Positions 270-56,695 of a stretch of 64,000 bases of DNA are shown piece after piece. The position numbers and the translations under genes are program-made. Numbering within the stretch: the stretch's first letter is position 1; each line of letters starts with the position of its first letter. Origin of the DNA: Acidobacteriota bacterium (GTDB lineage Bacteria; Acidobacteriota; Thermoanaerobaculia; Multivoradales; J023); NCBI GenBank assembly GCA_029263355.1, contig JAJCXQ010000686.1:177-64176 (forward strand). Direction: 5' to 3'. The notes beneath the pieces are model-generated. The model had not been told where the DNA came from, did no database searches, and was given only the letters and a program-made list of their open reading frames with translations.

Positions 270-3200
270 ATGATCCACACTTTATCGTCACGCCGCCCCT
301 CGATGTCCCTCAGGTGGGGATCAACTCTCCTGGCCACCGTTCTTCTGTCGGCAGCTCCGGGACACGCACAGCTACCGGGAAACTCCTGGAGCGGTGAGGG
401 GCCGACGCCGATCCACAACGGGCAGACCGAAGGCATCACCAACAACCCGGTGGCTGGCGCCATCAACACGGTTGCCGCACATCCGACCAACTCGGACATC
501 CTCTATGTCGGGTCGGTCAACGGCGGGATCTGGCGCACAACAAACGCCACCAGCGCGTCGCCAACTTGGACCCGCTTGACGTCCTCCGAAGCTTCACAGT
601 CCATTGGTACGATCGATTTTGATCCAACGGACGGCACCAACAACACGCTCCTCGCCGGCATCGGCCGCTTCAGCAGCTTCGCCTCGGTTGGCGGCAGCCG
701 CTCGGGGCTGCTGCGCACCACCGACGGCGTCAACTTCACCCTGATTAACGGCGGCATGGCGGGGCGCAACATCGTCGGTACGGCTGCACGCGGCACGACC
801 CTGGTTGCAGCAGTCAATATTGCGGACATTTTCAGCTGCGGCAACATCGGGGTCTGGCGATCCACCAACACTGGAGTGAGCTGGACGCAGGTCTTGGGCG
901 GCCTCGCCGACGCTCTCGCCAGCGACCCGAGCAGCACCACCACCCTCTACGCGAGCAAAGTTTTCGGTGCTGCCTGCGGCGCGGGCGTCAACGGCATCTT
1001 CAAGAGCACCGATACCGGCGCCACCTGGGCCAAGGTGAGCACAGCGGCGATGGACGCCCTGCTCAACAACAGCTCGGGCACCAACGTCGACATCGTGGTT
1101 GGCAACAGCAACAACGTCTTCGTCGCCATCGTAAATTCAGGGACCGGAGCCTACGGTGGAGTCTTCCGCTCCGGCAACGGAGGAACAACCTGGACACAGA
1201 TGGACGCTCCTGCGACCGCCGCTGGCACTCTTCACCCCGGTACTCAAGGCGGCACCCACACCTCGATCGCCGCCGACCCGACCAACTCCAACATCGTTTA
1301 TCTCGGCGGTGATCGCCAGGCCAGCCCGTTTCCCAACCCGGTCGGCGCGGTGAACTTCTCCGGCAACCTGGCACGCGGTGACGCGAGCTTAGCCCCGGGA
1401 TCCCAGTGGACGGCCCTAACCCACAGTGGCACCGCTTCGAACTCGTCGCCCCACGCCGACTCGCGCGACATGGTCTTCACGGCCGGCGGCGACCTCATCG
1501 AGACCGACGACGGCGGCATCTACCGCCGCACCTCGCCGACTTCCGCCACCGGCGACTGGTTCTCGCTCAACAACAACCTTCAGGTCACCGAACACCACGA
1601 CTCGGCCTACGACAGTCTCAACGACATCTTGATCGTCGGCAATCAGGATGTCGGGACCGCCGAGCAGACCGCCCCGCTCGGCCTGATCTGGAACCAGGTG
1701 ACCCAGGGTGACGGTGGCGACGTGATCTCCGGCCCCGGCGCCGTCGCTGGCCAAGAGGTGCGTTACTCGAGCTTTCAGAATCTGTCGTCGTTTCGCCGCC
1801 GGACGTTCAATTCCTCGAACACTCTCTTGTCGACAGTCTTTCCCGCTCTCGCCGGTGCCGCCTTCTCCCCGCAGTTCAGGACTCCTATCGCCATCAACGA
1901 GATCGCCCCCAACCGCCTGATCTTCGGCGGCGCCAACGGGGTTTTCGAGTCGCTGAACCGCGGCGATACGATCAGCCAGATCAGCAGTACAATCGTCACA
2001 GATATCTTCAACGGAGGCGGCGCCATCGCCGCGGGCGGAACCGGCAACGCCGACCTCGTCTACGTTGCTGGTGTGGCTGGCGGGACCAGCGCACTCTGGG
2101 CGCGGACGACCAGCGGCGGCGCCTTTTCGAACGTCCAAACCGCCGCCGGCGGCACAGCCATGGTCGGCGCCACCATCGATCCCGACGATGCGACCCATGG
2201 TTTCGGACTCGATTCGGCGAACGTCTACCGCACCACAAACACCGGCACAACCTTCTCCAACGTCACTGGCAACCTGCTCACGCTGAGCCCCGGCACCCTG
2301 CGCTCCATCGAATACATCAACAGCTCGTCGGGTGACGCTGTGGTCGTCGGCGCCGACCGGGGAACCTACATCGCGTCAGACAGCACCTCGTTCAGCACCT
2401 GGACAAAGTTTGGCGCGGGGATTCCGAACTCCCCCGTGTTCGAGCTCACCTACGACTCGGCAGCAGACGTTTTACTCGCGGGCACCATGGGGAGCGGCAG
2501 CTATCGGATGACGAGCCTGTCGGACACCTGCGCCGAGTCGATCGCCCTGGTCACGGGTCAGTGGAAACAGATCTCCTTAGCCTGTAATCCCGGCGGCTCC
2601 AATACTGTCGCCGATGTCTTCGGTGACGACCTCGGCGGGACCTACGACGTTGATTGGGTTGTCTTTCGGTACGACGCGTCGACCCAAACCCAGATCAAAC
2701 TGGCGACCACCGATACCCTAGCCGTCGGCGAAGGCTACTGGATCAGAACAAACCTCGGCTCACAAGTCGTCGACGTCTCGGGGACCGACAATGTGGTGAC
2801 CGACACGCCGCTCACGGGCGTCCTGGCCACCCCACCAGCGGGCTGCGCCAGCTCGGCGGGACGCTGTGGCATGGCCGGAAATCCACACGCCTACGACGTC
2901 TGCTGGGCGGACGTCCTGGTGGACGACGGCGGATTTATCAATGACTTGGCAACGGTCGATCCGGGCGGAATCTGCCAAACAACCGGCGGCGCAACGTGTG
3001 TCATGTCGCGGATCGGCCACAAGTGGACCGGCTCCGCCTACACCACTTTTGACGGCACCACCCCGGGCATGGAAGGTACCTTGGTGCCCTGGGACGCCTT
3101 CTGGATTTCGGCCAACAAGCCCGGCATCGAGCTACGCATACCGGAGACTCCAGGCGGCCCGGGCTTGCCCTGCGGACCACCCGCCAGGACTAGCGATCAA

Positions 3201-3686
3201 GGTGAAGGCTGGTTCATACGGCTGACCGCCGAGTCCGGGCAGCTGGTGGATTCCTTCAACGTTTTTGGTCAGCTTCCCGACAGCCATCGCGGGTACGATC
3301 CGCACGACCTTCAAGAGCTCGCTCCTTTTGGCACCCCGTACCTAACCGTGGTGTTCCCGCACGACAACTGGGGCGATCACGCAGGAGACTACGCATCGGA
3401 CTATCATTTGGCGCGCCCGGCGTCGCAGCCCGACGAGTGGCGATTCGACGTCCGCTCTTCGGAAACCAGTGCCGAGGTGACCTTGCGCTGGGACGGGCCA
3501 AGCTCGCGCCTCGACGGCTCGGTGCTGACCGATGTAGAGACAGGCGAACAAGTGGACGTTTCAGGCGATGGGAGCTACACCTTCGTGATGAACGGCAACA
3601 GTCGAAGTTTCCACTGGGTCTCACAGGCGGCAAGCCAGGGGCTCTTCGCGGACAGCTTCGAGTCGGGCGATACAAGCGCCTGGTAA
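270..3686 (+). CDS. Large secreted BNR/Asp-box repeat protein (~1138 aa) with C-terminal ~430-aa module shared with the 5854..8538 protein
   Basis: ATG at 270 with GGAGGAG RBS; signal peptide (RWGSTLLATVLLSAAPGHAQ); multiple S-x-D/N-x-G-x-T/S-W repeats (GGIWRTTN, STNTGVSWTQV, STDTGATWAKV, SGNGGTTWTQM, TTNTGTTFSNV); C-terminal region aligns with paralog (VDWVVFRYD.../GEGYWIRT; CVMSRIGHKWTGSAYTTFDG; FIRLTAESGQL...LTVVFPHDNW); ends ...FADSFESGDTSAW. Confidence 0.85.
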   Translation: MIHTLSSRRPSMSLRWGSTLLATVLLSAAPGHAQLPGNSWSGEGPTPIHNGQTEGITNNPVAGAINTVAAHPTNSDILYVGSVNGGIWRTTNATSASPTWTRLTSSEASQSIGTIDFDPTDGTNNTLLAGIGRFSSFASVGGSRSGLLRTTDGVNFTLINGGMAGRNIVGTAARGTTLVAAVNIADIFSCGNIGVWRSTNTGVSWTQVLGGLADALASDPSSTTTLYASKVFGAACGAGVNGIFKSTDTGATWAKVSTAAMDALLNNSSGTNVDIVVGNSNNVFVAIVNSGTGAYGGVFRSGNGGTTWTQMDAPATAAGTLHPGTQGGTHTSIAADPTNSNIVYLGGDRQASPFPNPVGAVNFSGNLARGDASLAPGSQWTALTHSGTASNSSPHADSRDMVFTAGGDLIETDDGGIYRRTSPTSATGDWFSLNNNLQVTEHHDSAYDSLNDILIVGNQDVGTAEQTAPLGLIWNQVTQGDGGDVISGPGAVAGQEVRYSSFQNLSSFRRRTFNSSNTLLSTVFPALAGAAFSPQFRTPIAINEIAPNRLIFGGANGVFESLNRGDTISQISSTIVTDIFNGGGAIAAGGTGNADLVYVAGVAGGTSALWARTTSGGAFSNVQTAAGGTAMVGATIDPDDATHGFGLDSANVYRTTNTGTTFSNVTGNLLTLSPGTLRSIEYINSSSGDAVVVGADRGTYIASDSTSFSTWTKFGAGIPNSPVFELTYDSAADVLLAGTMGSGSYRMTSLSDTCAESIALVTGQWKQISLACNPGGSNTVADVFGDDLGGTYDVDWVVFRYDASTQTQIKLATTDTLAVGEGYWIRTNLGSQVVDVSGTDNVVTDTPLTGVLATPPAGCASSAGRCGMAGNPHAYDVCWADVLVDDGGFINDLATVDPGGICQTTGGATCVMSRIGHKWTGSAYTTFDGTTPGMEGTLVPWDAFWISANKPGIELRIPETPGGPGLPCGPPARTSDQGEGWFIRLTAESGQLVDSFNVFGQLPDSHRGYDPHDLQELAPFGTPYLTVVFPHDNWGDHAGDYASDYHLARPASQPDEWRFDVRSSETSAEVTLRWDGPSSRLDGSVLTDVETGEQVDVSGDGSYTFVMNGNSRSFHWVSQAASQGLFADSFESGDTSAW

Positions 3687-3746
3687 CGGCGATACGAGCC
3701 CCTGATAGAATGGGGGCTCGACTGAGAACAGAAAACAAGGTGCGAC

Positions 3747-3914
3747 ATGGATATATTGAAATCTGATCCGGCGCTCGAGACGCCAGCAGCGGGGGAAGCG
3801 AGAGCTGCTGAGCGTCCCTCGCGCCCCTACCAGAAACCTGAACCCAAGCTTTATGGCCAAATCCGTCCCAGCTTGATCGGATCGCCGCCACCGCCGCCAG
3901 GCAAGGGTTTCTGA
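3747..3914 (+). CDS. Candidate 55-aa precursor-like peptide MDILKSDPALETPAAGEARAAERPSRPYQKPEPKLYGQIRPSLIGSPPPPPGKGF (small ORF, unannotated in ORF track)
   Basis: ATG with AAGGTG 4 nt upstream; AT-rich 5' codons in a GC-rich genome; stop 19 nt before the S24/S26-like peptidase gene on same strand; hydrophilic N-part with Y-x4-P-x-L-x-G reminiscent of RRE-binding leader motifs, Pro5 tail; adjacent to PqqD/HprK-like genes. Confidence 0.45.
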   Translation: MDILKSDPALETPAAGEARAAERPSRPYQKPEPKLYGQIRPSLIGSPPPPPGKGF

Positions 3915-3933
3915 TACGGCCCCTGCGGCCAGC

Positions 3934-4536
3934 ATGGGATTGAACATCGCCCCTAGGAACGTCGCGTTGGGGACAGCCGCCTCCGGAGAGATTGCGCAAC
4001 AGCTTCTAGCGCGGGCTTTGCGCGCCGAGAAGGCGGCTCGGCTCCAAGTTCGGGGCCGCTGCATGGAGCCCTTGATTCGCGACGGCGATTGGGTCGAGGT
4101 TCTGCCGCCCGGTGCAGCGCAACACGGCAGTATCGTCCTGGCCCGCAACAGCAGTGTCGTGTTGGCCGCAAGCGGCAGTGACGATCTGGTCTGTCACAGG
4201 GTCATTGCGCGGGACGGCGACAGCGTCTGGCTAGCCGGCGACCACTCGGTGGCGGTTGAAGAACACCTCCCAGAGAGTGTGCTCGGTAGGGTCATCAGCG
4301 TTGATCGAGGAGGCGTGGTGCAACACCTCGACGGACCGGCGGTCCGCGGTCTCGATCGACTCGAAGCCGGTTTGCACCGGCTCGCTTGGCAACATCGCGG
4401 CTCACTCGTGAGCCGCGTGCTGGAAAAGTTCCGGCGGGCGCTTCTGGAGTTGCGCGCTCAAGCCTGGGCAGCGGGCGCCAAACTAGCCAACAGAGCGGGC
4501 ACATCGTCCCGTTTCCGGCCGGCTTCCAGCCGGTAG
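3934..4536 (+). CDS. S24/S26-fold (LexA/signal-peptidase-like) peptidase homolog with Cys at the nucleophile position
   Basis: GRCMEPLIRDGDWVEV resembles SipW/Sec11-type box (SGSMEP..GD..V) with C for S; downstream LVCHRVIARDGDSVWLAGDHS resembles HRV and GDNN boxes; 3' end overlaps convergent HprK-like gene by 79 nt, so C-terminus/start uncertain. Confidence 0.6.
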   Translation: MGLNIAPRNVALGTAASGEIAQQLLARALRAEKAARLQVRGRCMEPLIRDGDWVEVLPPGAAQHGSIVLARNSSVVLAASGSDDLVCHRVIARDGDSVWLAGDHSVAVEEHLPESVLGRVISVDRGGVVQHLDGPAVRGLDRLEAGLHRLAWQHRGSLVSRVLEKFRRALLELRAQAWAAGAKLANRAGTSSRFRPASSR

Positions 4537-5336
4537 CCGGGAATCGACCGACCGAGCCTCACCAAGGCCCGGAATCGATCCCCGGCAGCGGCCCCAGAGC
4601 TCAGGAAACCGCTCTGCCCCACCAAAACGTCTACCAGATCCGGCAACATCAACGGCGAGACGACGCTGTCTTCATGGTCGACAATCTCAGGACAAACGAT
4701 CGCCTGGAGCTCGATGTTAGTGGTGGTCGGCCAGGGTACTGATCTGGTCGCCGCACCACGAGGAAAAGCCACCATGCGGGGGCCATCCTCGCCCGGAGCG
4801 AGCCACACCACATCGTCCGAGAGCACCTCGTGCCCGGCGCGGTGGACATTGCCAAAAATCGTCGACTTCCCGACGCCGCTCGGGCCGGGCAACAGGATCC
4901 CAAAACCATCAACCGCGACGCCAGCAGCGTGGATCCCGAACCAACCACGACTCGCGCCCAACTCGATGAGCATCGGCACGAGGGCCAGGCCGATGAAAAG
5001 ATCCAACTCACCATCGGAAGGGCTCTCGAGGCAGAGGCCACCCCGGCCCTCCGTCACATCACACCAGGCCAGTACCCTCGGCAGCTCGAAGAAGATTTGA
5101 TCCCCCGCTTGCCGAACAGTGAGCGGAGGCTCCTCGACGACCGTCCTCCCCCTCGGCAGCGGCGCCGCTGCTCGCGCTCCGACGCTCACCTCGACCGGTA
5201 AGCCGCTCGCCGCAACCGCACCATGGATGAAGTAGGCCAGGAACGCCTCGATACGCTGATGCAACGGCCTCGGCAGGGGGTCGAAACGAAAAACCAGACC
5301 GGATCCGATCGGGACCACCAGAGAGGCGCGGGTCAT
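4458..5336 (-). CDS. HPr kinase/phosphorylase C-terminal-domain-related P-loop protein (HprK-related kinase)
   Basis: GIHAAGVAVDGFGILLPGPSGVGKSTIFGNVHRAGHEVLSDDVVWL matches HprK C-domain (G.HA..V...G.G.L..G.SG.GKS....G..L.SDD.V); ATGA start/stop overlap with upstream PqqD-like gene. Confidence 0.8.
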   Translation of the reverse strand: MTRASLVVPIGSGLVFRFDPLPRPLHQRIEAFLAYFIHGAVAASGLPVEVSVGARAAAPLPRGRTVVEEPPLTVRQAGDQIFFELPRVLAWCDVTEGRGGLCLESPSDGELDLFIGLALVPMLIELGASRGWFGIHAAGVAVDGFGILLPGPSGVGKSTIFGNVHRAGHEVLSDDVVWLAPGEDGPRMVAFPRGAATRSVPWPTTTNIELQAIVCPEIVDHEDSVVSPLMLPDLVDVLVGQSGFLSSGAAAGDRFRALVRLGRSIPGYRLEAGRKRDDVPALLASLAPAAQA

Positions 5337-5644
5337 GGGGCGTCGACACGCTCGACCAAGCCAAGCTCATGGAGCCGGGTCACGAACTCGAGCAAATCGG
5401 AACTGGCGCGCGAAGCCTCGATGCCGAAGTGCCTGGCGACCGCTTCTCCGACAACCCGGAGCTCGGACTCACCGTCGAGACGGTCCCAGATGAAGCCCCC
5501 GGCCTCCCCCACACCGTAGTAGCTACCCGAGTCGAGATCCAGGATCAGATAGTCGCCGGGAGAGCTTTCGCCGGTTGACGCTTCGCCGCGGACAACTCGA
5601 TCCGTCAAGCTGAAGTTGGCTTCTTCGCCACCATGTGAGTGCAT
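5333..5644 (-). CDS. PqqD-family protein (RiPP recognition element-like peptide chaperone)
   Basis: 103 aa; DYLILDLDSGSYYGVGEAGGFIWDRLDG...SDLLEFVTRLHELGLVERV matches PqqD/RRE pattern (Y..LN.ta..iW.ll.g....e.......l.efl..L...GL); translationally coupled to HprK-like gene. Confidence 0.8.
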   Translation of the reverse strand: MHSHGGEEANFSLTDRVVRGEASTGESSPGDYLILDLDSGSYYGVGEAGGFIWDRLDGESELRVVGEAVARHFGIEASRASSDLLEFVTRLHELGLVERVDAP

Positions 5645-5853
5645 TGATTGGAAGGTTATCAGATCGTCTGCCTCGCACCGGCGTGCCTTGATTTCGACCA
5701 GAATTTTGCATATTCTCTAATCGAGGTAGATCTATCTGCCCAAATGTTACGGCCCACTTGGCGTGGATCCAAAATCTTCATCTAGCGGATGCGGGTCTTT
5801 ATCCAGAGTTCGAGTTCCGGGTCGATACTCATCTTATAGATGGAGGTTTTGTT

Positions 5854-8538
5854 TTGAGATTTCGCACGTTACTGATTGCAGCTTGCTTGCTGTTATCCTT
5901 TTTTGCAACGTCCGAGACCCATGCCGCGATTAGCGTCATCAACGTTTCGGTCCCGCAAGAGATTGCGCCGGGAGAATCCTTCAACGTCACCTACACCTTG
6001 AGCGGCACCAGCACGCTGGCGGTCGCCGAGTTGAGGTTCTACCTCGGCGCCTCTCCCACCAGCCGAGACTTTGGCCCTCTAAACGAGTCATTTCAACTCC
6101 CTTTGATCGGCACGTTCCCCTCGTTTGGTCCGCCAGCCGGCCCGCAGACACGGTTCATCCGGATGCCCACGTCCCTGCAGTCGTTTGGCTGTTTCCCTTC
6201 GGGCACTTGGTACTTCATCTTGCAGGTCGATAGCGGCTCACAAAATGCCGACAGCTTCCAGGTTGCACCGCTCTCGATCTCCAGCTTCACACCACAATCT
6301 GGCCCGCCCTGCACGCCAGTGACCGTCAACGGCAACAAGTTCGGTGACGTGAACGTGAACGTGAACGGCCTTTTCTTCAACGGCACTCCTGCCGTAGGAA
6401 CGTTTGTCAACGACACGACAATCACCACTAACGTGCCACCGGGCGCGACGACGGGACCCATTCAGCTCCCAAACTCATGCAGCCCCAACCCCGGCGTGTC
6501 CTCACCATCACCCTTCTTTGTGACGCCTTTCGCCAATCCGCCAGTCGTCAACAGTTTCACCCCTACCACGGCTTCGGTTGGCGCCTTTGTTCAGATCTTC
6601 GGTGAGAACTTTACAGACACCACCACTGCCGTGCTCTTCAATGGTACTCCGGCATCGCGCGTGTTCATCAATCCTCAGCTAATGGTCGCGTTTGTGCCCA
6701 ACGGTGCTACGGACGGTCCGATTACCGTGGGCTCAGTGTGCGAGGGATCCGATGTTTCGACATCCGACTTCATTGTCGACCCCCACTGTCTTTCCGCCGC
6801 CGAGTTTCTCAATGCCTCCCGCATTGACTCGGTAAGATTGGGCAATCTCGAGTATGTGAACAACGAGATGCCGAGTTGTACGTTCTACACCAACAACTCA
6901 GACCTCGTGACCCATGTCTTTCCCGGGCAGACCGGACTCCCGATCCAGATCGGACAAGGTTCTTGCGACGCCAACAACTTCAACAAGGTCACTAAGCTGT
7001 TCGTCGATTGGAATGGCGACACAGACTTCAGTGATCCTGGCGAGTTGGTGTTGACCGGACCTCCGTTTCCCAACGCGCTGCTGTCTGGCACCTTCAGTGT
7101 TCCGCCGTCGGCGGTCTTGGGCCCGGCCCGGATGCGGATTGTGACGCAGGCTGCCGCTTCGTCGGACGATGTCACCGACTGCGGCCTGTACAACTTCGGT
7201 GAAACTCAGGACTACACACTAGAAATCTCGGCGTGTGCCGGGTTCCGAGATTTGCCGGCAGGGAATTGGCACAGTATCTCCATACCTTGCGATCCCGGGC
7301 TCGAGAACACCGTGCAAGATCTCTTCGCCGACGATTTGAGCGGTGTTTATGGCATCGATTGGGCGCTTTTTACCTACGATGTGAACACCGGGCAGTCCTC
7401 GGTGATGGCTCTCGGCGATACCGTCGAGACGGGCCGGGGTTATTGGCTCAAAACTCGCGACGACGGCCAGAGTATCGGTCCTGGAGGAATCGTAAACCCG
7501 CAGGCGATCGGCATGGGTGGACAACCCAGCTCGATGACCGATATGTCCTTGGTCGCGGACCCGGCGGGCCGCTCCAATCTAGTTGGATTCCCCTACACCT
7601 TCAGTGTCGATTGGGCCGATGTGCAGGTGGTCGACGGTGGCAACGTCCTAACTCTCGATCAAGCCGATCCGGTGGTTGGGCTCGATCGCGCCTGCGATCT
7701 GGATCCACCCCACGCGAGCTGTGTCATGTCACGATTGCTCTACCGGTGGAACGGGGCGGCTTACGAGACATTCAACGGAGCGACCCCCGGCGCTGAAGGT
7801 GTGCTCAGCCCGCTGGATGGCTTGTGGGTCAAAGCGTTCAAGAGTGGTATTTCTCTGAGAATTCCCGCGGTTCCCTCGAGCCGGGATGCGGAGCGAGCGG
7901 GGGATGAAGTAGACCCGAACAGCTGGTTCATTCGGCTGATCGCAGAATCAGGAAATCTGCGGGACGCCGGCAACATCTTGGGCGAATCGGAGCAGAGCGT
8001 CGAAGGTTACGACCTCGACGACTTGGCCGAGCTGCCGCCGTTTGGGCAACCGAACCTGACCGTGGTTTTTCCACACCCGGATTGGGAGGAAAGGGCCGAC
8101 GACTATACGACGGACTTCCGCCCCTTGAATCTCGGTCTCGAGTCCGAGCCGACACTTTGGCACTTCGAGGTCCGATCCTCGGACCCCACCGCCGACGTGA
8201 CTCTGAGTTGGGAAGGATCCGGCACTCGGCTGCTCGGCTCGGAGCTGTTCGACGAGGAAACCGGCGAGCGGGTAACGATTCGCCCCGGCGCGAGCTACTC
8301 GTTCACCATGACCGGGCCGAGTCGTCACTTCGAGTGGTCGGTGCAGGGAGTGTCACCGTCGGCCGGTCAAATTTTCGCGGACGGATTCGAGTCGGGCAAT
8401 CTGGGCGCTTGGCAATCCCTGGGCTCGGGTCGATCCGCGAACACGCTGAAGGTCGAGTTCGAGAGTGACGTCCAACCACGACAACACGACTCAAAACTAG
8501 AACCGCGGAGCAGAGCGAGCGAGACGATCAGGCAGTAG
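5854..8538 (+). CDS. Large secreted protein with two IPT/TIG domains, a GEVED domain and the C-terminal module shared with 270..3686
   Basis: TTG start at 5854 with GGAGG 7 nt upstream (no in-frame ATG before signal peptide LRFRTLLIAACLLLSFFATSETHAA); IPT-like repeats (FTPQSGPPCTPVTVNGNKFG..., FTPTTASVGAFVQIFGENF...); GEVED-like motif CGLYNFGETQDYTLEI; C-terminal alignment with first protein; ends ...FADGFESGNLGAW + 48 aa. Confidence 0.8.
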   Translation: MRFRTLLIAACLLLSFFATSETHAAISVINVSVPQEIAPGESFNVTYTLSGTSTLAVAELRFYLGASPTSRDFGPLNESFQLPLIGTFPSFGPPAGPQTRFIRMPTSLQSFGCFPSGTWYFILQVDSGSQNADSFQVAPLSISSFTPQSGPPCTPVTVNGNKFGDVNVNVNGLFFNGTPAVGTFVNDTTITTNVPPGATTGPIQLPNSCSPNPGVSSPSPFFVTPFANPPVVNSFTPTTASVGAFVQIFGENFTDTTTAVLFNGTPASRVFINPQLMVAFVPNGATDGPITVGSVCEGSDVSTSDFIVDPHCLSAAEFLNASRIDSVRLGNLEYVNNEMPSCTFYTNNSDLVTHVFPGQTGLPIQIGQGSCDANNFNKVTKLFVDWNGDTDFSDPGELVLTGPPFPNALLSGTFSVPPSAVLGPARMRIVTQAAASSDDVTDCGLYNFGETQDYTLEISACAGFRDLPAGNWHSISIPCDPGLENTVQDLFADDLSGVYGIDWALFTYDVNTGQSSVMALGDTVETGRGYWLKTRDDGQSIGPGGIVNPQAIGMGGQPSSMTDMSLVADPAGRSNLVGFPYTFSVDWADVQVVDGGNVLTLDQADPVVGLDRACDLDPPHASCVMSRLLYRWNGAAYETFNGATPGAEGVLSPLDGLWVKAFKSGISLRIPAVPSSRDAERAGDEVDPNSWFIRLIAESGNLRDAGNILGESEQSVEGYDLDDLAELPPFGQPNLTVVFPHPDWEERADDYTTDFRPLNLGLESEPTLWHFEVRSSDPTADVTLSWEGSGTRLLGSELFDEETGERVTIRPGASYSFTMTGPSRHFEWSVQGVSPSAGQIFADGFESGNLGAWQSLGSGRSANTLKVEFESDVQPRQHDSKLEPRSRASETIRQ

Positions 8539-8554
8539 AGCGAACAGGCACGGT

Positions 8555-9685
8555 TTGCTCGCTGCACCGCGAGGCCCATACACTTCGCAGGTGGTCTTGC
8601 AAGTGTCCGTTGCCCCGCGGGGTCCATCAGCGGCCCGATACAGTTCTATTGAGCGACAACTGGTAGAACTGGTCGCGGCCATGACAGGTCGAGACGAGGC
8701 CTTCTCGCAGCAATGCGAGGAGGTCCGGAATTGGGAGCGTCTGCTCGAATCCGCGCTGGAGCACGGCGTCGCGGGTGTTCTGATGCAGCGCATCGCGGAC
8801 ACCGGCATTAGCCTACCGGCAAAACCTCGCGAGGCGATTGAGCAACGTCTCGCCGTCGACCGCCTGTGGCATCGCCACATGACGGGGGACCTCAGGCAGG
8901 TCCTGCAGGCGTTCGCGGAAGACGGGTTACATACCGTGACCTTGAAAGGACCGGTGCTGAGCGAACGTCTCTACCCACGGGCAGCGCTGCGTGCTTCGGG
9001 AGATCTCGACCTGTTGGTCCGCCCCGCGGACATGGCGCAAGCCCGGGAAACCTTGATCCGCATCGGCTATTCCCCCAGACCAGGAGCACCCCTTCTTCAC
9101 GCCAGCGTCTTCGACCACTCCGGTGGCGGCAATGTCGACCTGCACTATCGCGCCTCCGACGGCTTCGCCACAACCCTGGAGGCCGAAAACCTCGTCACCC
9201 GCTCGATCCCCTACGACACGGCGGACGCGGGAAGGGCGTGGATTCTGGCGCCGGAGGACGAATTCCTCTATCTCGCCGTTCACGCCGCGCGTCACCGATT
9301 TTTGCGACTACGCTGGCTCTACGATCTACATCTTTTTGCGCAGCATCATCCCGATCTCGCCTGGGAGACGATTGCCATCCGGGCCAAGGCGCACCACGTT
9401 CAACGGGCGGTTTCAACCACCTGCGAAGCGCTCGAAAGGCTGCTGCCGGAAACGCTTCCGGAGGCGGCAAAAGCCCACCTGCGACAAGAGCCCGTTCGGT
9501 CACGCATCGTGATGGCCGTGGCGTCGCTCTCTGCCGTGGCCGACGACAGCGTTTGGCGCAAAAGCTACCGAGTCTTCTGGCACGTCACCTATCACGCCCT
9601 CCTCGGCGAAAGCAGCGTCGCCAGCATCCGGTTCTGGTGGCAGTCCCTAGCGCAGGCTGCAGCGCGGCTCTGGCGCACGCGCTAG
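8555..9685 (+). CDS. Nucleotidyltransferase-family protein (PF14907-like 'uncharacterised nucleotidyltransferase')
   Basis: KGPVLSERLYPRAALRASGDLDLLVRPADMAQARETLIRIGYSP and DLHYR... fit the PF14907 pattern; start uncertain (TTG 8555 or ATG 8681). Confidence 0.65.
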   Translation: MLAAPRGPYTSQVVLQVSVAPRGPSAARYSSIERQLVELVAAMTGRDEAFSQQCEEVRNWERLLESALEHGVAGVLMQRIADTGISLPAKPREAIEQRLAVDRLWHRHMTGDLRQVLQAFAEDGLHTVTLKGPVLSERLYPRAALRASGDLDLLVRPADMAQARETLIRIGYSPRPGAPLLHASVFDHSGGGNVDLHYRASDGFATTLEAENLVTRSIPYDTADAGRAWILAPEDEFLYLAVHAARHRFLRLRWLYDLHLFAQHHPDLAWETIAIRAKAHHVQRAVSTTCEALERLLPETLPEAAKAHLRQEPVRSRIVMAVASLSAVADDSVWRKSYRVFWHVTYHALLGESSVASIRFWWQSLAQAAARLWRTR

Positions 9686-15409: not shown

Positions 15410-17368
15410 TCACTCAACGTCGAAACGGATCGGCTCGATGCTCATCGGTAACGGGTAGAACATCGGATCACCTTCGAAGCGAACCACGACACGGACCTCG
15501 CCGATTCCGGGATCGTCTGCTCCCTCACCCGTGGCTGTGATCACATAACCCTCCCAGCCCGCGGTCAACGCGTCGCGACGGAAACTCTTCGCCACGTCGG
15601 TACGATGGACGCCGAGCACCAGCTCACCACAGATGGCGCCTCGACGATCGAGCACCAGAACCTCGGCAACCCTAGCGCCCGACCTGTAAGCCCAACCTCC
15701 AAGGCGAACAAAGTTCGCGCTGATCCGAGTCGAACGGTCGACGTAACCCGCCATGTCCTCTAGTAGCCGATCCGCCAGACGCTCAGGCTCGATCAGTTCA
15801 CCGAGACGCAGGGGCCAGGGGCGATCGAACGGCACGTGCCCCGTGCGCTCGAGGTAGGCGCGACGCATCCACACATGCTCAGGCCAGGGCGCGACTGTCG
15901 CCTCGATGATCTCGTTGTCTGGCACGCCGTGGACCACTGCAAGGGCAGCGACAGGCTGCCGTGCGCCCCGCGCCACAAAACGATCCACCACCGGACCTCC
16001 GCGAAGGTGCATCGCCGTCGCCAGCCCTGCCACCAACGCCAACAGCAGAACCGCACCTACGACCCGAACAGGCGGCTGGGAAGGCCGATAACGCCACGCC
16101 AGCAGCCCGATCGAGGTCAGCAGGCCGATCCAGAACAGTGCCGCCAGCGAGCCGTAACGAGACGACATCGCTTGCGCTTCGCCGAACCCGGAACGGCCGA
16201 CGGCAGTCATCAACGCGTTACCTAAACCGTAGGCCTGAATCATCAACCACGGCGCCATCTCGACACGTAAAGACTTAGAGCTGAACGATAGCAGGACACA
16301 GCCCGCGACCACCAAGCCACTGGCCGCGATCGCGATCAGCCCGATCGTCCGTGCGGTCACCAACTCGCCGGAGAAGATCGAGCCCAGATAAACCGCCGCG
16401 TAACGTAACAACGACGTGGGATGACGAGTCTGTAACTCAGGGTGGTAGGGCAGCGACTCGTAGGACAGAGCGAAGAGAGCGACCACCAAACCCATTCCGC
16501 CGCCGAGCAGTAACAGGCGACGCCAGCTCAAACGCAGAAACACCCCGCCAGCGATCAACACCGGCCACAGAATCAAGTGAGTGCTGTGGCTGAAGGCGGC
16601 GGCGATGCCGAACAACAGCACCGGCCATACCGCCCACATCGTGCCGATCTCGGCACGCCGAGTCAAAGCAACGATCGCAGCAACCGCCAGCACATTGGCA
16701 AAGAACCAAATACTGCCACTGAATCCCATCGCCACGTTATGCGCCGCAACTGGCGAAAAACAGAACAACGCCACACCCAAGCCGAAGGTGACCTTGCCCC
16801 AAGGGCTGGCACGAAGTGCCGATGGCAGAGCCGAGACCAAAAGCACCAGTTCCAAGGTCAACAGCAGCAGAGAGAAAAATGTCAGGCCAAGATTGTGGCC
16901 GTTGGTGAGCAGGATGTTGAGAGCGTAAACCAACAACGGCAGTGAAGCGCGGTGCTCGTTCGACTTCAGATTCAGCCAATGCACCGGATCAACCGACAGG
17001 CCACCGCCTTCAGCTTCGCCGCCAACTTCGATCATGTCGCCCAGGATGGCGTAATAATCGTTGTGCTGCATTCGGCCGAAGCTCGAAAATTCGCCTAGGT
17101 AAACGACGATCGGCGACACAATTATCAGCCAGGTCACCATGCTGACGAGCAGCTTCGATCGCCGAACTGCGGGCACAGATCCCGAATGAGATTCACCACG
17201 TGGCGAGTCGACACGTGGCGAGTCAGCTTGTGACGAAACGTCTTCAGAGGACATCATGAGCTCGATGCATCGGGTCTTGGCGTGGCGGATGGACGAATCG
17301 TCAGCGGGCAGGCGGGGGTGGGATGCCGATGCAGTGTAACCACCGCTTTCGAAAAGCGTCAATAGCAC
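15410..17368 (-). CDS. Polytopic membrane protein with C-terminal soluble domain (putative glycosyltransferase-like; paralog of 17382..19190); true start probably ~17260
   Basis: ~10 TM helices; strong similarity to adjacent paralog (PVAAHNVAMGFSGSIWFFANVLAVAAI... / HSTHLILWPVLIAGGVFLRL); 5' region contains the duplicated promoter-like motif. Confidence 0.6.
   Translation of the reverse strand: MLLTLFESGGYTASASHPRLPADDSSIRHAKTRCIELMMSSEDVSSQADSPRVDSPRGESHSGSVPAVRRSKLLVSMVTWLIIVSPIVVYLGEFSSFGRMQHNDYYAILGDMIEVGGEAEGGGLSVDPVHWLNLKSNEHRASLPLLVYALNILLTNGHNLGLTFFSLLLLTLELVLLVSALPSALRASPWGKVTFGLGVALFCFSPVAAHNVAMGFSGSIWFFANVLAVAAIVALTRRAEIGTMWAVWPVLLFGIAAAFSHSTHLILWPVLIAGGVFLRLSWRRLLLLGGGMGLVVALFALSYESLPYHPELQTRHPTSLLRYAAVYLGSIFSGELVTARTIGLIAIAASGLVVAGCVLLSFSSKSLRVEMAPWLMIQAYGLGNALMTAVGRSGFGEAQAMSSRYGSLAALFWIGLLTSIGLLAWRYRPSQPPVRVVGAVLLLALVAGLATAMHLRGGPVVDRFVARGARQPVAALAVVHGVPDNEIIEATVAPWPEHVWMRRAYLERTGHVPFDRPWPLRLGELIEPERLADRLLEDMAGYVDRSTRISANFVRLGGWAYRSGARVAEVLVLDRRGAICGELVLGVHRTDVAKSFRRDALTAGWEGYVITATGEGADDPGIGEVRVVVRFEGDPMFYPLPMSIEPIRFDVE
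17332..17363 (-). promoter_or_regulatory. Copy 2 of the 32-bp promoter-like motif (TTGACG-N18-TACACT) upstream of the membrane-protein gene
   Basis: CAGTGTAACCACCGCTTTCGAAAAGCGTCAAT (plus strand) vs copy 1 CAGTGTATCCACCGCTCGCGAAAAGCGTCAAT, 28/32 identical. Confidence 0.45.
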
Positions 17369-17381
17369 ACCGGATCCGTGG

Positions 17382-19190
17382 TTAGTTGCCGCCCTCAGGA
17401 CCGATGAGCAGTTGCTCAGTCACGCTCTCTCGGGTCGGCAACGGGTAGAAGAGAGGATCCCCGGCCAACCGCACCCAGGACCTGAGCTGCCCAGACTTGG
17501 AATCGACTCGGGCATATCCTTCCCAGCCGGCAACCAACGCCTCGTCTCCTACCCGCTGTCGCAGCTCCGGACGGTGAATGCCGGTGAATATCTCGCCCCG
17601 ATAGACCCCCCCTTTGTCCAGAACGATGACTTCGGCCACCGCCGACGATCGACTGTAGGCCCAACCGCTCGGCCGAACAAAGCCGCCGTGGAGACCCTGA
17701 GTCAAGCGCTCGAATTCGCCCTGGAGCTGAGGATGGGGCTGATCACTCAAGAGTGAGGCTTCGATCCGCTCACCTAGACGCCAACGATATGGGCGATGGA
17801 ACGGCACATGGCCAGAGGCCTTCATGAAGTTGTAGACACGGTACATTTGGCGCGGCGCGGGGGTGACAGCACGGCTGAAGATATAGTCGTCGGCGATACC
17901 CAAATGCAACGCCAAAGCCGCGACAGGCTGGCGACTTCCGCGTGCCAGAAAGCGGTCCATCACCGATGCCCCTCGAACATGCATCGCGACCGCCGCGCCC
18001 ACAGCCAGGCTGATCAGTCCCACCGCGACACCGACTCTGCCCAACCTCGAGTTGGGGCGCAGTCGCCAGCCTATGATGCCGAAAGGTATCAACAAGCCTA
18101 CCCAGAACAGAGCGGCCATCGACGCATAACGCGACGCCAACGCCTGCTCCATGCCGAACCCAGCGCGCCCGATAGCAGCCATGGCAGCGTTGCCAAGGCC
18201 ATAAAGCTGGATCATCAGCCAAGGCGCCAGGTCGGTACGCAAGTCCTTTGAGGGCAGTGTCTTCCATACCCATGGAAGACAGACCATGAGTGCCAGACTA
18301 ATGACGCTGCCAAGCATAGCGACACTTCCCACCACTCGAGCGAGGTTGACATCCGCACTGAACAGCCCTCCAAGATACACCGCCGTGTAGCTCAGCAGCG
18401 TCGATATTCCGCGGGTGGTCGGGGCAGGATGACTGGCGAGAGATTGGTAGGTAAAAACAAAGAGAGCCAGGATCCAAGTCGCGCCGGCGGCCAGGAGAAT
18501 CAGCCGGCGGAACCTCAAACGAAGAAACAGGGCTCCGACGAGCACAGCAGGCCACAACATCAGATGTGTGCTGTGGGTGAAGGCTCCCAAGGTACCCAGC
18601 AACAACACTGGCCACAGCGTCCAGTAGCTACCGCGCTCAGCCCTCCAACTCAAGACAGCAATAGCGGCAACGGACAACGCATTGGCAAAGAACCAAATGG
18701 ACCCGCTGAAGCCCATTGCCACGCTGTGCGCCGCAACCGGCGTAAAACAAAACAGCGCCAGCGTAAAACCGAAGCCGGTGCGTAGCCAACCGTTCGCTCG
18801 CAGGTCCGTCGGCAGCAGGCGCACCATGATAACCAGAGTGACCGCCAACAAGAGAAGCGAGAAGGCTGTCAAGCCGAGGTTGTGACCATCGGCTAGAGCC
18901 ATGTTCGCAACGTACACCAGCACCGGCAGGCTGACTCGATGTTCATTGGCTTTGAGGTTCAGCCAACGCGCCGGCTGGTACGAGATCTCCTCGCCCTCGA
19001 CAATACGATGCAAAATACCGTAGTAGTCATTACCCTGAAGCTCACCAAATTCTGGGACCTTGGCCAGGTAGACGGTCAGAGGTAAGAAGATGACGAGCCA
19101 TGTAAAGACGCTTAGACTCCAGGTCGCCGCACGACGCGGATACAGACTCGTCAAAACAAATTGGGTCCATTGGACAGAATGTTTCGTCAT
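17382..19190 (-). CDS. Polytopic membrane protein with C-terminal soluble domain (paralog of 15410..17368)
   Basis: PVAAHSVAMGFSGSIWFFANALSVAAIAVL..., HSTHLMLWPAVLVGALFLRL; C-terminal domain also conserved (AGWEGY...GDPLFYPLP). Confidence 0.65.
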   Translation of the reverse strand: MTKHSVQWTQFVLTSLYPRRAATWSLSVFTWLVIFLPLTVYLAKVPEFGELQGNDYYGILHRIVEGEEISYQPARWLNLKANEHRVSLPVLVYVANMALADGHNLGLTAFSLLLLAVTLVIMVRLLPTDLRANGWLRTGFGFTLALFCFTPVAAHSVAMGFSGSIWFFANALSVAAIAVLSWRAERGSYWTLWPVLLLGTLGAFTHSTHLMLWPAVLVGALFLRLRFRRLILLAAGATWILALFVFTYQSLASHPAPTTRGISTLLSYTAVYLGGLFSADVNLARVVGSVAMLGSVISLALMVCLPWVWKTLPSKDLRTDLAPWLMIQLYGLGNAAMAAIGRAGFGMEQALASRYASMAALFWVGLLIPFGIIGWRLRPNSRLGRVGVAVGLISLAVGAAVAMHVRGASVMDRFLARGSRQPVAALALHLGIADDYIFSRAVTPAPRQMYRVYNFMKASGHVPFHRPYRWRLGERIEASLLSDQPHPQLQGEFERLTQGLHGGFVRPSGWAYSRSSAVAEVIVLDKGGVYRGEIFTGIHRPELRQRVGDEALVAGWEGYARVDSKSGQLRSWVRLAGDPLFYPLPTRESVTEQLLIGPEGGN

Positions 19191-19236
19191 GTCTCGCTTT
19201 GATGAGGGCCAGGCTGAAATTATTGGGATAACGACT

Positions 19237-19253
19237 TATGCTTGAAAAGCATA
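19237..19253. promoter_or_regulatory. Perfect dyad TATGCTT-gaa-AAGCATA in divergent promoter region
   Basis: 7-bp inverted repeat with 3-bp spacer in AT-rich intergenic region between 17382..19190(-) and 19393..(+) operon. Confidence 0.35.
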
Positions 19254-19392
19254 TACGGTTCATGCCGTGTCTCCGTCACAGTTCCGACTTGGCGCTGTAG
19301 TCCGGGATACCGTCATCTGGGATACCGTCATCCGGGCTGCCACCAACCGACCCCAATCCTCCGGGACTAAAAACCTCGAGCTTGTTTCGACT

Positions 19393-21183
19393 ATGTCTTC
19401 GCTACCTGAACCTGAACGTCTCGCCATGCCACTCGCCGTCTGGCTGGCGGTTGCCGCCTACACCAGCAGCCAGCTCGACCCGGCTGGCAAAGCAGAAGGG
19501 GCATTCCTCGGGTTTTTGATCGCGGGTGTCGTCGCGGCGATTGCAGCGATCGGATCTCGGACCCCTGGACGCAGGACATCACCAGAGCTGGCGTTGACGG
19601 CTCTGCTGTCTACCGCAACCGTCTGGATCGCTTATCAGGGGCCTTCACGGGGTGCTGTGGTGTCGGTGATTTTGGTCCTCGGGTTGGGTCTCAGCACCGC
19701 GCGAGCCCTCTTCGATGGCGGTGGGCGATGGCGACTCGTGGACCGGCTCGATCCCGGTATCTCAGTACCGATCGCCCTCGGCTGCCAATGGCTGATGCGC
19801 GGTGACCTGCTGCTGGCGCCTCTGCTCGAGACCCGGTCTCTGGTCAGCTTGCTGATACTGCCAATGGTGGCTGGCGGTTCGATCAGCGTTCTGGCCAGCC
19901 GCTTTGGTGTCCAACGAGCGGTGCTCGCCGGCGGACTGGTGGTGGTTCTCGCACCGGGTTGGACGCTGACCTCGACCTTTGCGGTTGCAGCCTTGGCAGC
20001 GGGCACACTCATCGCTGACCGCAATAAATCCAGCGTTTTACGGTGGGGGGCCGTCGCCGGCCTCGTTTTGTTGCCACTGTGGAGCCTGCCGAAGGGGTTA
20101 TTGATGGTGCTCGCGGCGATAGCGACCACCGGCCTAGCCATCGCTCCCCTGCCGCTGTTGACCATCGCCGCTGCATTGGTCGCGATCATGAGTCCACAGA
20201 TGCAGAGCCCGAGAAGCGCCTTGCACGCCTGGGCTGGCGGCGCGGTGCTGTTGGTTCCGGCAGCTATCATGGCGCCGGCCGATGGACGCGGCCAGATGCG
20301 CCTGGGTGCCATCCTGGCATTGGCTGCGGCACTGATCTCACCCCACCAGGATGCGATGGCAGCCGGCGTCGCGGTCGCCGCACTTGGCACACCGATCGGC
20401 GGCGCCGTCGCCACCCTTCAGCGAGCTTGGTGCGCAACATTGGTGATTGGCACAGCGCTACTCAGTGCCTATCCCTGGGTGCGGCGTGATCCCCTCGAGG
20501 ACCTGATGGCACTGTTCGGTTGGCACACTGAAGCATTCGCGGTGCTGATGGTTGTGAGCGGTGTCGTCGGACTCGGCTTGTTGTTGGATTTGTGGCGCCG
20601 CACCTCGCCGCGTTGGGCGCCGCGCCCCGGAATCCTCGCCGCTGTGCTGCTCGCCATCGCGCTGCTGCTCGGCAACGGCGTGTTGGACATCAGCTCCGTG
20701 TCACATCGCGGGTTCGCTCCGACCGACGTCCCAATCAACAGCTACAGCCCGGTCAACCTCGACGCCGCAGCCACAACATGGCAGAAGACGTTCTCCGAGT
20801 CACCGATCACCACCCAGACGATAGCCGGACTGACGATAGCCGGACTGACGATAGACAGTCACCTGATTCGCGGTAGCCAGCTGATTCCGGGAACGACCGT
20901 TGCAACTGTCGAACTGCTCGGACCCAAAGGCGAAATCCTGGCAGAATGGCCTCTGCGGGCCAACGCCGAAACGGGAGAATGGTCTTCGGCTCGGGACGAT
21001 CTCGTGGCGCCTTCACATTGGATCACCCGGGTCGCCCCCGAAGGCACCTTCTTCGCCCGTAGCTACCGTGCCCGCTTCGAGCCTGCCAAGCCGCTAGAAG
21101 CGGTTCGCTTGAGAATCCGACGCGCTGCCGACCTGCCGCAAAAGACAGAGCTAAGGATCGTCCGGTTGGAGATTCGGCAATGA
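19393..21183 (+). CDS. Polytopic Ala/Leu-rich membrane protein with C-terminal soluble domain
   Basis: ATG 19393 (MSSLPEPERLAMPLAVWLAV...); >10 predicted TM segments; contains tandem peptide repeat TIAGLTIAGLTID; ATGA-coupled to downstream gene. Confidence 0.6.
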   Translation: MSSLPEPERLAMPLAVWLAVAAYTSSQLDPAGKAEGAFLGFLIAGVVAAIAAIGSRTPGRRTSPELALTALLSTATVWIAYQGPSRGAVVSVILVLGLGLSTARALFDGGGRWRLVDRLDPGISVPIALGCQWLMRGDLLLAPLLETRSLVSLLILPMVAGGSISVLASRFGVQRAVLAGGLVVVLAPGWTLTSTFAVAALAAGTLIADRNKSSVLRWGAVAGLVLLPLWSLPKGLLMVLAAIATTGLAIAPLPLLTIAAALVAIMSPQMQSPRSALHAWAGGAVLLVPAAIMAPADGRGQMRLGAILALAAALISPHQDAMAAGVAVAALGTPIGGAVATLQRAWCATLVIGTALLSAYPWVRRDPLEDLMALFGWHTEAFAVLMVVSGVVGLGLLLDLWRRTSPRWAPRPGILAAVLLAIALLLGNGVLDISSVSHRGFAPTDVPINSYSPVNLDAAATTWQKTFSESPITTQTIAGLTIAGLTIDSHLIRGSQLIPGTTVATVELLGPKGEILAEWPLRANAETGEWSSARDDLVAPSHWITRVAPEGTFFARSYRARFEPAKPLEAVRLRIRRAADLPQKTELRIVRLEIRQ

Positions 21184-47655: not shown

Positions 47656-48411
47656 CTAAGCCTCGTCCGAACCCTCCTGGACGACACCGACCATGTCATC
47701 ACAATCGTTGATCTCGAGCTCGAATCGCCAGCCTTCGTAGCTCATCAACATGCGCCCCATCTCGTACCACGAGATATCACGTCCGTCGATGACCAAACGA
47801 GGGAGGTCGCCGTCGGTCTCTTCGTCCCACTCGATCTGGCCACGGACATTACCCTCAGCAATCTGTGGCTGCTCATCCGTCGTGAGGTATTTCTTCCCCA
47901 ACTCGTCACGCATCCGCTGGTACAAGACTCGAAATAGATCCATAGGATCTTTCTCAGCATCGCCGAGGACGCTGAACTCGTAGCCTTTGACCTCACCTTG
48001 ACGCACCTCGAGGGCGTCAATCTTGACCACCTCGCCGTGGAGATGGGTTCGAAACTCGAAGTCGTGCTCGGCGCCCGTGCTGTCTGCGACACTGATCGGC
48101 ACGAAGTCGGGGTGTTCAAAATCGAGCTCCATGGTGACGCTCATCATTTCGTTGTAACAGCGACCACAGAGCAGGGTTCCAGGATCACCCTGCTCGCGCA
48201 AAAGCTGGACGCCATCATGGGAGCGGATGACCTTGTTGCAGTTTTGGCAGCGATCTTTCAACCCAAAGCCTCCGCGATCAAACGAGCCTGTTCTTGCTTG
48301 TGGGCTGCCGCCGAACCCGTCGCCGGACTGGCCGACTCTGGGCGGGTGACGGCCTCCAGCGGCCACCGACCAAAAAGCTGGCGACTGAGGCGCAATAACA
48401 GGAAGCTCCAA
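47656..48411 (-). CDS. Hypothetical protein with CxxC...CxxC zinc-ribbon; start uncertain (5' part overlaps sucA 3' end)
   Basis: CQNCNKVIRSHDG...LLCGRCYNEM; ORF overlaps 48258..48411 of the sucA-like gene, so true start likely downstream. Confidence 0.4.
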   Translation of the reverse strand: MELPVIAPQSPAFWSVAAGGRHPPRVGQSGDGFGGSPQARTGSFDRGGFGLKDRCQNCNKVIRSHDGVQLLREQGDPGTLLCGRCYNEMMSVTMELDFEHPDFVPISVADSTGAEHDFEFRTHLHGEVVKIDALEVRQGEVKGYEFSVLGDAEKDPMDLFRVLYQRMRDELGKKYLTTDEQPQIAEGNVRGQIEWDEETDGDLPRLVIDGRDISWYEMGRMLMSYEGWRFELEINDCDDMVGVVQEGSDEA

Positions 48412-56529: not shown

Positions 56530-56695
56530 TCGGTTTCATCCGTCGCGACGGAGGGCGCTGGGCGAGACAACTCTCTTGAGGGACTTTCGTAACGTCTTAC
56601 GTGAGTCTCTATGGGGGTTGTTCCATTCACAGGGTCGAGTCGGCTTTCCAGGTGACATGCGCCTTGATCAGGCTCGTGAGCAAAGGAGATCATCA

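Follow-up and report, generated by a model that had tools for sequence, protein, structure and literature searches.

Two large exported proteins encoded in a 64,000-nucleotide stretch of an Acidobacteriota genome (assembly GCA_029263355.1, contig JAJCXQ010000686.1, positions 177 to 64,176 of the forward strand; Thermoanaerobaculia, Multivoradales; hereafter the window) share a C-terminal module followed by a short acidic-aromatic peptide, here termed the tag. The tag also ends more than 100 unrelated exported proteins and is under purifying selection in the orthologs of the first protein, P1, which strongly favours the conserved C-terminal tag that a first-pass annotation of this DNA had offered as one of two options. 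Its position, its distribution and the types of protein that carry it suggest that it is a sorting, anchoring or recognition signal. Beside P1 and its paralog P2 lies a cassette of genes related to those of lasso-peptide clusters, and this cassette appears to have a substrate of its own. Taken as a whole, this explanation, in which a self-standing signal and a cassette with a separate substrate share a locus, is in our view moderately probable.

P1 terminates in ...LFADSFESGDTSAW, immediately followed by TAA, and the corresponding region of P2 reads ...IFADGFESGNLGAW. The F-A-D-x-F-E-S-G-x-x-x-A-W motif recorded earlier is indeed present in both proteins, with P1 stopping at the W, whereas the tail of P2 counts 41 residues after the W rather than 48. 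Module proteins that stop directly after the tag W also occur in the related loci L003, L005, L006 and L128 (ending in ...IFSDGFESGDTSRW, ...IFADGFESGDTGNW, ...IFADGFESGDTSRW and ...IFADGFESGDTSAW, respectively) and twice in L144, and the modules of these W-stop orthologs are just 53–63% identical to that of P1. Pairwise comparison of the 13 tag codons among five orthologs gave 42 synonymous and 20 nonsynonymous differences, the latter restricted to four variable positions. Given these differences in orthologs with modules only 53–63% identical, the tag and the stop after its W are kept by selection. In L144 (1016-9882), two tandem module proteins with differing N-terminal types each end in ...FESGDTSAW followed by the stop codon. 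The P2 orthologs P0052 (65%) and P0053 (63%) carry the tag with tails of nine and four residues (...FESGTTNAWAGGFGSKGR and ...FESGTTDAWSQTR), and the more distant TIG-GEVED relatives P0054-P0056 are without it. An origin of the P2 tail by stop loss, with TAA in P1 but CAA in P2 after the W, was considered and rejected because both of these orthologs have short, genuine tails after the W. The final 16 residues in the structural model of the P1 module, tag included, have a mean predicted local distance difference test score (pLDDT) below 50 and are predicted to be disordered.

The first-pass annotation had suggested a search for other proteins ending in the motif, and such proteins proved to be common. 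A scan of one genome per species with the pattern DGFE[ST]GDTxxW, which required no stop codon, returned at least 131 matches in at least 119 genome stretches, against a chance expectation of fewer than one by our estimate (about 42 bits over 1.2e12 positions). Among the matches listed, nearly all come from Acidobacteriota metagenome-assembled genomes (MAGs) of the Thermoanaerobaculia, Holophagae and Candidatus Multivoradales, with a few from Myxococcota/'Deltaproteobacteria' and single ones from other groups. In the same set the W stands five residues before the stop in 79 of 129 copies and within eight residues of it in 114 (~88%), and six copies (about 5%) end at the W itself. The consensus is [IL]-F-x-D-G-F-E-S-G-D-T-S-A-W-S-x-T-V-P-COOH, with ~19 conserved residues and no conservation upstream of the [IL]F pair. 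The listed carriers are mutually unrelated, comprising subtilases, FG-GAP, beta-helix, BNR, GSDH and InhA-like MAM proteins, and choice-of-anchor J, Q, B and O families and M36 peptidases are among their NCBIfam assignments; choice-of-anchor and similar domain families are known to take alternative C-terminal anchors. A simple heuristic recognised a signal-peptide-like N-terminus in 70 of 87 complete carriers. The tag matched no NCBIfam or Pfam model (six carrier tails and the P1 tail, E<=10), the 25 top-ranking NCBIfam families in 100 carriers held no sorting-signal or type IX secretion system (T9SS) model, and the full-text literature yielded no paper on DGFESG and none on a Thermoanaerobaculia sorting signal. 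In the 8-kb stretches of the at least 119 tag loci, no enzyme recurred beside tagged genes; the only recurrent neighbours listed were Ser/Thr kinase genes with tetratricopeptide repeats (TPR; 11/119) and genes for an extracytoplasmic function (ECF) sigma factor (7/119). The window itself encodes a Ser/Thr kinase with TPR repeats like those neighbours (60080-62854, minus strand).

The paralogy of the P1 and P2 C-termini, also claimed in the first-pass annotation, is borne out by BLASTP (inputs 270-3683 and 5758-8535), which gave a single long alignment with 181/436 identities (42%, E 2e-91) spanning residues 730-1138 of P1 and 468-885 of the P2 open reading frame (ORF). The conserved part is about 370-385 residues (P1 aa 754-1125), shorter than the ~430 first stated, and tblastn found no third copy in the window beyond P1 and P2. 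Both N-termini are signal-peptide-like, MIHTLSSRRPSMSLRWGSTLLATVLLSAAPGHA in P1 and MRFRTLLIAACLLLSFFATSETHA in P2, the latter counted from TTG 5854, which is the most likely start because it has GGAGG 8 nt upstream and is followed by this signal peptide. The N-terminal halves are unrelated, as had been proposed: by Pfam, P2 has two TIG domains and a GEVED domain, and P1 gave a weak Sortilin-Vps10/BNR-like match of 31 bits, under the cut-off. P2 is thus laid out as signal peptide, two TIG domains, GEVED, C-module, tag and tail, and the architecture of P1 recurs in the orthologs of L005, L006 and L144. P0053 is annotated as Acidobacteriota, and the nearest loci come from this phylum.

The extracytoplasmic proteins that share this module form a large family without annotation. 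The AlphaFold model of the module in P1 is all-beta and two-lobed (pLDDT 81.7, predicted TM-score (pTM) 0.82). The module carries conserved Cys and Trp, belongs to no Pfam family and has no relative in the PDB, whether compared by fold or by sequence. An exhaustive profile search recovered 488 module clusters (50% identity) at E<=1e-30, the profile containing some flanking columns that make weaker-scoring counts less certain; a word-indexed search had given 27 matches only, and the family thus looked rare. Against the A1 module profile, P1 scores 598 bits and P2 552 bits, both full-length at the C-terminus, and throughout the family the module is nearly always C-terminal, behind varied N-terminal domains. 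Because the tag is present in 12 of the 185 module-family sequences in hand, it is best described as an optional appendage of this family.

The tag also resembles the beginning of a MAM domain. In the carriers L015 and L057, InhA-like MAM matches begin at internal FE.G..GW motifs, and the Pfam InhA-like_MAM profile (PF20773) aligns to the tag over its C-terminal ~20 positions. Judged by this sequence likeness, the tag may derive from a MAM-type edge strand. Neither P1 nor P2 gives a MAM match in Pfam. A third copy of the motif in the window, FEEDFESGSDGW at 59027, is internal to the protein at 56576-59869, where it had been said to open a MAM-like domain; the motif is there, but the region after it has no Pfam or PDB match and the domain is without support. 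That protein (plus strand; internal FEEDFESGSDGWTTSGLWH) has weak FTP and Reprolysin matches and ends in ...CSDDDDA.

The candidate substrate of the cassette is the small ORF downstream of P1. Homologs occur in L005, L006, L127, L128, L130, L143 and L144 (hidden Markov model (HMM) E 1e-11 to 1e-29), and in these seven other loci they always lie beside a module protein and/or a PqqD-kinase pair, being directly upstream of the PqqD and kinase genes in L006 and L143. The conserved part reads R-P-Y-x-K-P-x-x-x-L-x-G-Q-I-x-P-S-L-L-G-S-P-P-x-P-P. Counted from the invariant G-S, it has Tyr at -17, Pro at -14, Leu or Pro at -12 (Pro, not Leu, in the window) and Gly at +1; lasso leaders have YxxPxL at -17 to -12 and Gly+1, a geometry that includes clusters with K and N genes and a hydrophobic residue at -2 (PMC10368454). 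The cores are Pro-rich (GSPPPPPGKGF in the window, GSPPLPP, GSPPGPP and similar elsewhere) and have neither an Asp/Glu acceptor at core position 7-9 nor a C-terminal Ser. Pfam and NCBIfam scans of most long ORFs at 183-23381 found no lasso cyclase and no B2 transglutaminase-type protease, and both are likewise unlisted among the called genes of L005, L006, L127 and L128. Since the cores lack an Asp/Glu acceptor and the cyclase gene is missing, the genes form a lasso-derived set rather than a lasso cluster. In L144, the small ORF follows the first module gene and the LexA-like peptidase gene follows the second, on a 13-kb contig without PqqD or kinase genes.

Among the cassette enzymes, the PqqD-family protein has its best NCBIfam match to the lasso PqqD chaperone (41.6 bits, cut-off 80); PqqD is a recognition element (RRE) of pathways for ribosomally synthesised peptides with post-translational modifications (RiPPs) and binds leader peptides. 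The kinase matches Hpr_kinase_C, HprK_rel_A/B and ScmC, all below cut-offs, and its orthologs adjoin PqqD in L005, L006, L127, L128 and L143. In L005, the closest relative, a Sulfotransfer_3 gene (4293-5204, minus strand) lies near the cassette, and this family has been reported in kinase-containing lasso clusters. The nucleophile position of the peptidase is occupied by Cys (GRCMEP) and the general-base position by His (CHR), with Cys43 and His88 as the proposed dyad; across the family alignment the nucleophile is Cys in most members and Ser in three, and His is invariant at the Lys position. It has no evident signal peptide, transmembrane segment or DNA-binding domain. Its profile matches LexA in the PDB, and its model (pLDDT 85.6) resembles the C-domains of LexA, UmuD and lambda CI with a root-mean-square deviation (rmsd) of about 3 Å (Foldseek probability 1.00, rmsd 2.9-3.1 Å over ~98 residues for LexA structures 3k2z, 6a2t and 1jhf). 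LexA-type enzymes cleave X-Gly bonds, and from this preference the peptidase is predicted to cut before Gly+1 of the small ORF. In seven loci its gene follows closely downstream of a module-protein gene, either immediately or with the small ORF in between. In the window it converges on the kinase gene with a 79-nt overlap; many peptidase homologs end in ...RPASSR, a terminus that the overlapping kinase 3' end may constrain. For the remaining steps there are precedents in lasso pathways, where HprK-like kinases phosphorylate the precursors, acting on C-terminal residues, and the phosphate is extended with hexose by PF14907 enzymes (PMC8498205).

The cassette and its small ORF track the module family, not the tag. 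Module-family proteins are accompanied by cassette genes in the window, L005, L006, L127, L128, L136, L143 and L144, and by the small ORF alone in L130, whereas 118 of the 119 listed tag loci are without PqqD, kinase or peptidase genes. The only listed tag locus with PqqD and kinase genes, L064, has them in a separate trio with a small ORF, and its motif is internal. This RiPP-like trio (5088-6484), in a Sulfomarinibacteraceae MAG, consists of the small ORF MKNEKPQPKRPYEKPELRRIG..., PqqD and kinase. Untagged module proteins stand beside the full cassette of L127 and the PqqD gene of L136 (at a contig edge), and L142 has a tagged P2-type protein without a cassette. With these loci, and with a small ORF of the cassette's own, the proposal that the cassette acts on the tag loses its footing. 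In metagenomes, a scan with the peptidase alignment found no relatives, and a scan with the module found 13 loci, none with a peptidase or kinase gene, L136 having the PqqD gene and L130 the small ORF. The W-stop module proteins differ from the broader pattern in that a LexA-like peptidase gene lies just downstream in 6/6 cases (window, L003, L005, L006, L128 and L144).

P1 and P2 had been thought to bracket the cassette, with relatives' loci named as the place to look. P2 instead lies inside it, between the PqqD and NTP_transf_5 genes, which are adjacent in L128. There the order is big protein, small ORF, peptidase, kinase, PqqD, NTP_transf_5 and a gene with a Cds6_C domain; the window shows the same order with P2 added between PqqD and NTP_transf_5 and with an ElyC-like gene further on. 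Relatives generally have one module gene beside the cassette, and L144 has two in tandem, of different subtypes. As L128 shows this order without P2 and relatives mostly have a single module gene, P2 is best seen as a lineage-specific insertion and not as half of an ancestral bracket. The coordinates are collected in Table 1.

Table 1 Coordinates of P1, P2 and the cassette genes in the window, with the basis of each assignment.
Feature	Coordinates	Strand	Basis or remark
P1, exported protein, 1138 aa from ATG	270-3686	+	ORF translation
C-terminal module of P1, aa 754-1125	2529-3644	+	42% identity to P2
P1 C-terminal tag, FADSFESGDTSAW	3645-3683	+	TAA directly after
Small ORF, 55 aa, MDILKSDPALETPAAGEARAAERPSRPYQKPEPKLYGQIRPSLIGSPPPPPGKGF	3747-3914	+	HMM-conserved, lasso-type precursor-like
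LexA-like (S24) peptidase homolog, 200 aa	3934-4536	+	Pfam Peptidase_S24 E 6.5e-7
HprK-like/ScmC-like P-loop kinase, 292 aa	4458-5336	-	Sub-cut-off matches
PqqD-family protein (RRE), 103 aa	5333-5644	-	PF05402 E 2e-14
P2, exported protein, 894 aa	5854-8538	+	Start probably TTG 5854; ORF 5758-8538
C-module of P2	7234-8373	+	
P2 tag, FADGFESGNLGAW	8374-8412	+	Followed by the tail
P2 tail, 41 aa	8413-8535	+	Unconserved
NTP_transf_5 nucleotidyltransferase	8555-9685	+	PF14907 E 1.5e-46; start uncertain 8555-8681

Elsewhere in the window, a 2-oxoglutarate dehydrogenase E1 (48258-51560, minus strand) has a cyclic-nucleotide-binding domain near its N-terminus (aa 147-227), an unusual fusion, and four consecutive large ORFs of 601-733 aa, two per strand, at 15410-23381 have no Pfam match.

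In the explanation that we favour, P1 and P2 are Sec-exported, multidomain proteins in which differing N-terminal 'working' parts are fused to a common ~370-aa all-beta module. Their short, disordered acidic-aromatic end, [LI]F-x-D-G-F-E-S-G-D-T-x-x-W, is an instance of a self-standing C-terminal tag used across the Thermoanaerobaculia and Holophagae, usually followed there by S-x-T-V-P-COOH and placed where PEP-CTERM, MYXO-CTERM, LPXTG or T9SS signals sit in other bacteria, and would be read after export by machinery encoded elsewhere in the genome. The 55-aa peptide would be the cassette's own substrate, its YxxPxL leader bound by the PqqD RRE, and the HprK-like kinase, the PF14907 transferase and the LexA-fold Cys/His peptidase would act on it, in an order that we infer. 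Cassette and small ORF travel with module-family proteins, P2 being a paralog inserted in this lineage. Several points weigh against this explanation. The function of the tag is argued from position and distribution; the tag counts and the taxonomic picture are minimum estimates, which the order of the scan may have skewed; the small-ORF cores lack both the C-terminal Ser that is the known target of lasso kinases and the Asp/Glu acceptor; and the explanation does not account for why module proteins and cassette are linked. Furthermore, the P1-type tag lacks SxTVP and has the peptidase gene beside it in all six cases, which would be unexpected if it were wholly independent of the cassette.

This last association fits a different account, in which the W-terminated tag is the substrate: PqqD would bind it in the form of a beta-strand, its Thr/Ser would be phosphorylated by the kinase and the peptidase would cut at an X-Gly bond, for example between ES and GD, before export, amounting to RiPP-type tailoring of the tail of a large exported protein of about 1,100 aa. 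The rarity of the W-stop form (about 5% of listed tags), the presence of any tag in just 12 of 185 module proteins, the tagged P2-type P0052 that adjoins a small ORF-PqqD-kinase set, and the action of lasso kinases on C-terminal residues (PMC8498205) would all agree with it. However, L127 and L136 have the cassette or PqqD beside untagged module proteins, the tag is abundant without the cassette, the canonical RRE-binding motif is found in the small ORF and not in the tag, the tag does not end in Ser, and the enzymes appear cytoplasmic whereas P1 is exported. The W-stop cases may also represent one inherited locus type, as suggested by a neighbour-joining tree of module regions that is approximate, the extracted envelopes including N-terminal flanks. 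We regard this account as improbable, and take the same view of its fullest form, in which peptidase, PqqD RRE and kinase process the W-terminated tag with the small ORF as co-substrate or adaptor; a less radical version would have the tag define a new Acidobacteriota sorting pathway without a transmembrane anchor. A structural or ligand-binding element, such as a Ca2+-binding cap or a strand docking onto a partner domain or oligomer interface, in place of a sorting signal, is rather unlikely: the tag is rich in Asp, Glu and Gly, has three aromatic residues, resembles a jelly-roll edge strand and is without a hydrophobic anchor, but it is predicted to be disordered on P1, and its attachment to very different folds through unconserved linkers argues against an intramolecular role, leaving docking in trans as the form that could still apply.

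The MAM-like features described above suggest a further possibility, that the tag is the functionless vestige of a first MAM/jelly-roll strand left by truncation or by insertion of the cassette. In its favour are the InhA-like MAM domains of L015 and L057, which begin with FE.G...GW motifs, the internal copy of the motif at 59027, and the match of the tag to the end of the Pfam InhA-like_MAM profile. Nevertheless, the domains that precede the tag are many and unrelated, yet its distance from the stop is fixed and it has a conserved SxTVP end of its own; purifying selection keeps it in orthologs whose modules share just 53-63% identity, and independent truncations cannot give so uniform an end. 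A vestigial origin of this kind is highly improbable. The truncated domain remnant that was the other option of the first-pass annotation accordingly gives way, the tags sitting on unrelated proteins at a uniform end under purifying selection. As a description of the tag in its present state, a truncated domain was ruled out by the C-terminal distribution and the purifying selection.

As a putative self-standing signal, the tag shares several properties with known sorting systems. Like the signals of PEP-CTERM/exosortase, GlyGly-CTERM/rhombosortase, MYXO-CTERM/myxosortase and LPXTG/sortase, it is a short C-terminal signature on many unrelated Sec-exported proteins, lineage-restricted and attached through variable linkers, and its carriers (choice-of-anchor, subtilase, FG-GAP and beta-helix proteins) bear those signals elsewhere. 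Unlike them, it is followed by no transmembrane helix or basic cluster, only by 0-8 residues. The T9SS C-terminal domain is likewise a non-membrane signal at the C-terminus of diverse secreted proteins, but is folded and about 70-100 aa long, in contrast to the ~19 conserved and predictedly disordered residues of the tag. With the N-terminal strand of MAM and InhA-like MAM domains the tag shares the F-E-x-G...W signature, although MAM is a jelly roll of about 170 aa and no domain follows the tag in P1, P2 or ~88% of the listed copies. The cassette, for its part, resembles phosphorylated or phosphoglycosylated lasso clusters (paeninodin, pseudomycoidin and Bradymonadales bsf) in its PqqD/B1 RRE, HprK-like kinase, PF14907 enzyme and YxxPxL precursor with Gly+1, yet differs from them in having no cyclase, B2 protease, Asp/Glu acceptor or C-terminal Ser in the core, and in having a LexA-fold Cys/His peptidase and a linkage to large exported module proteins. 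This peptidase shares its fold and the G-x-S/C-M-x-P motif with LexA, UmuD and lambda CI (S24) and with type I signal peptidases (S26), but its family mostly has Cys for Ser and invariably has His for Lys, and carries neither a DNA-binding domain nor a membrane anchor.

Pfam, NCBIfam and the searchable literature appear to hold no description of the tag, of the module family or of a lasso-type set that lacks a cyclase and has a LexA-fold Cys/His peptidase. Should the tag be a sorting or anchoring signal, it would mark part of the exported proteome of the Thermoanaerobaculia and Holophagae and would imply recognition machinery that works without a membrane-spanning anchor. In annotation, the tag would serve as an easy marker for hundreds of hypothetical proteins. 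In the cassette, a lasso-type set of leader, RRE and kinase has shed its cyclase and acquired a LexA-fold Cys/His peptidase, and it is repeatedly linked to one family of large exported proteins, a linkage that lies outside the explanations of current RiPP biology.

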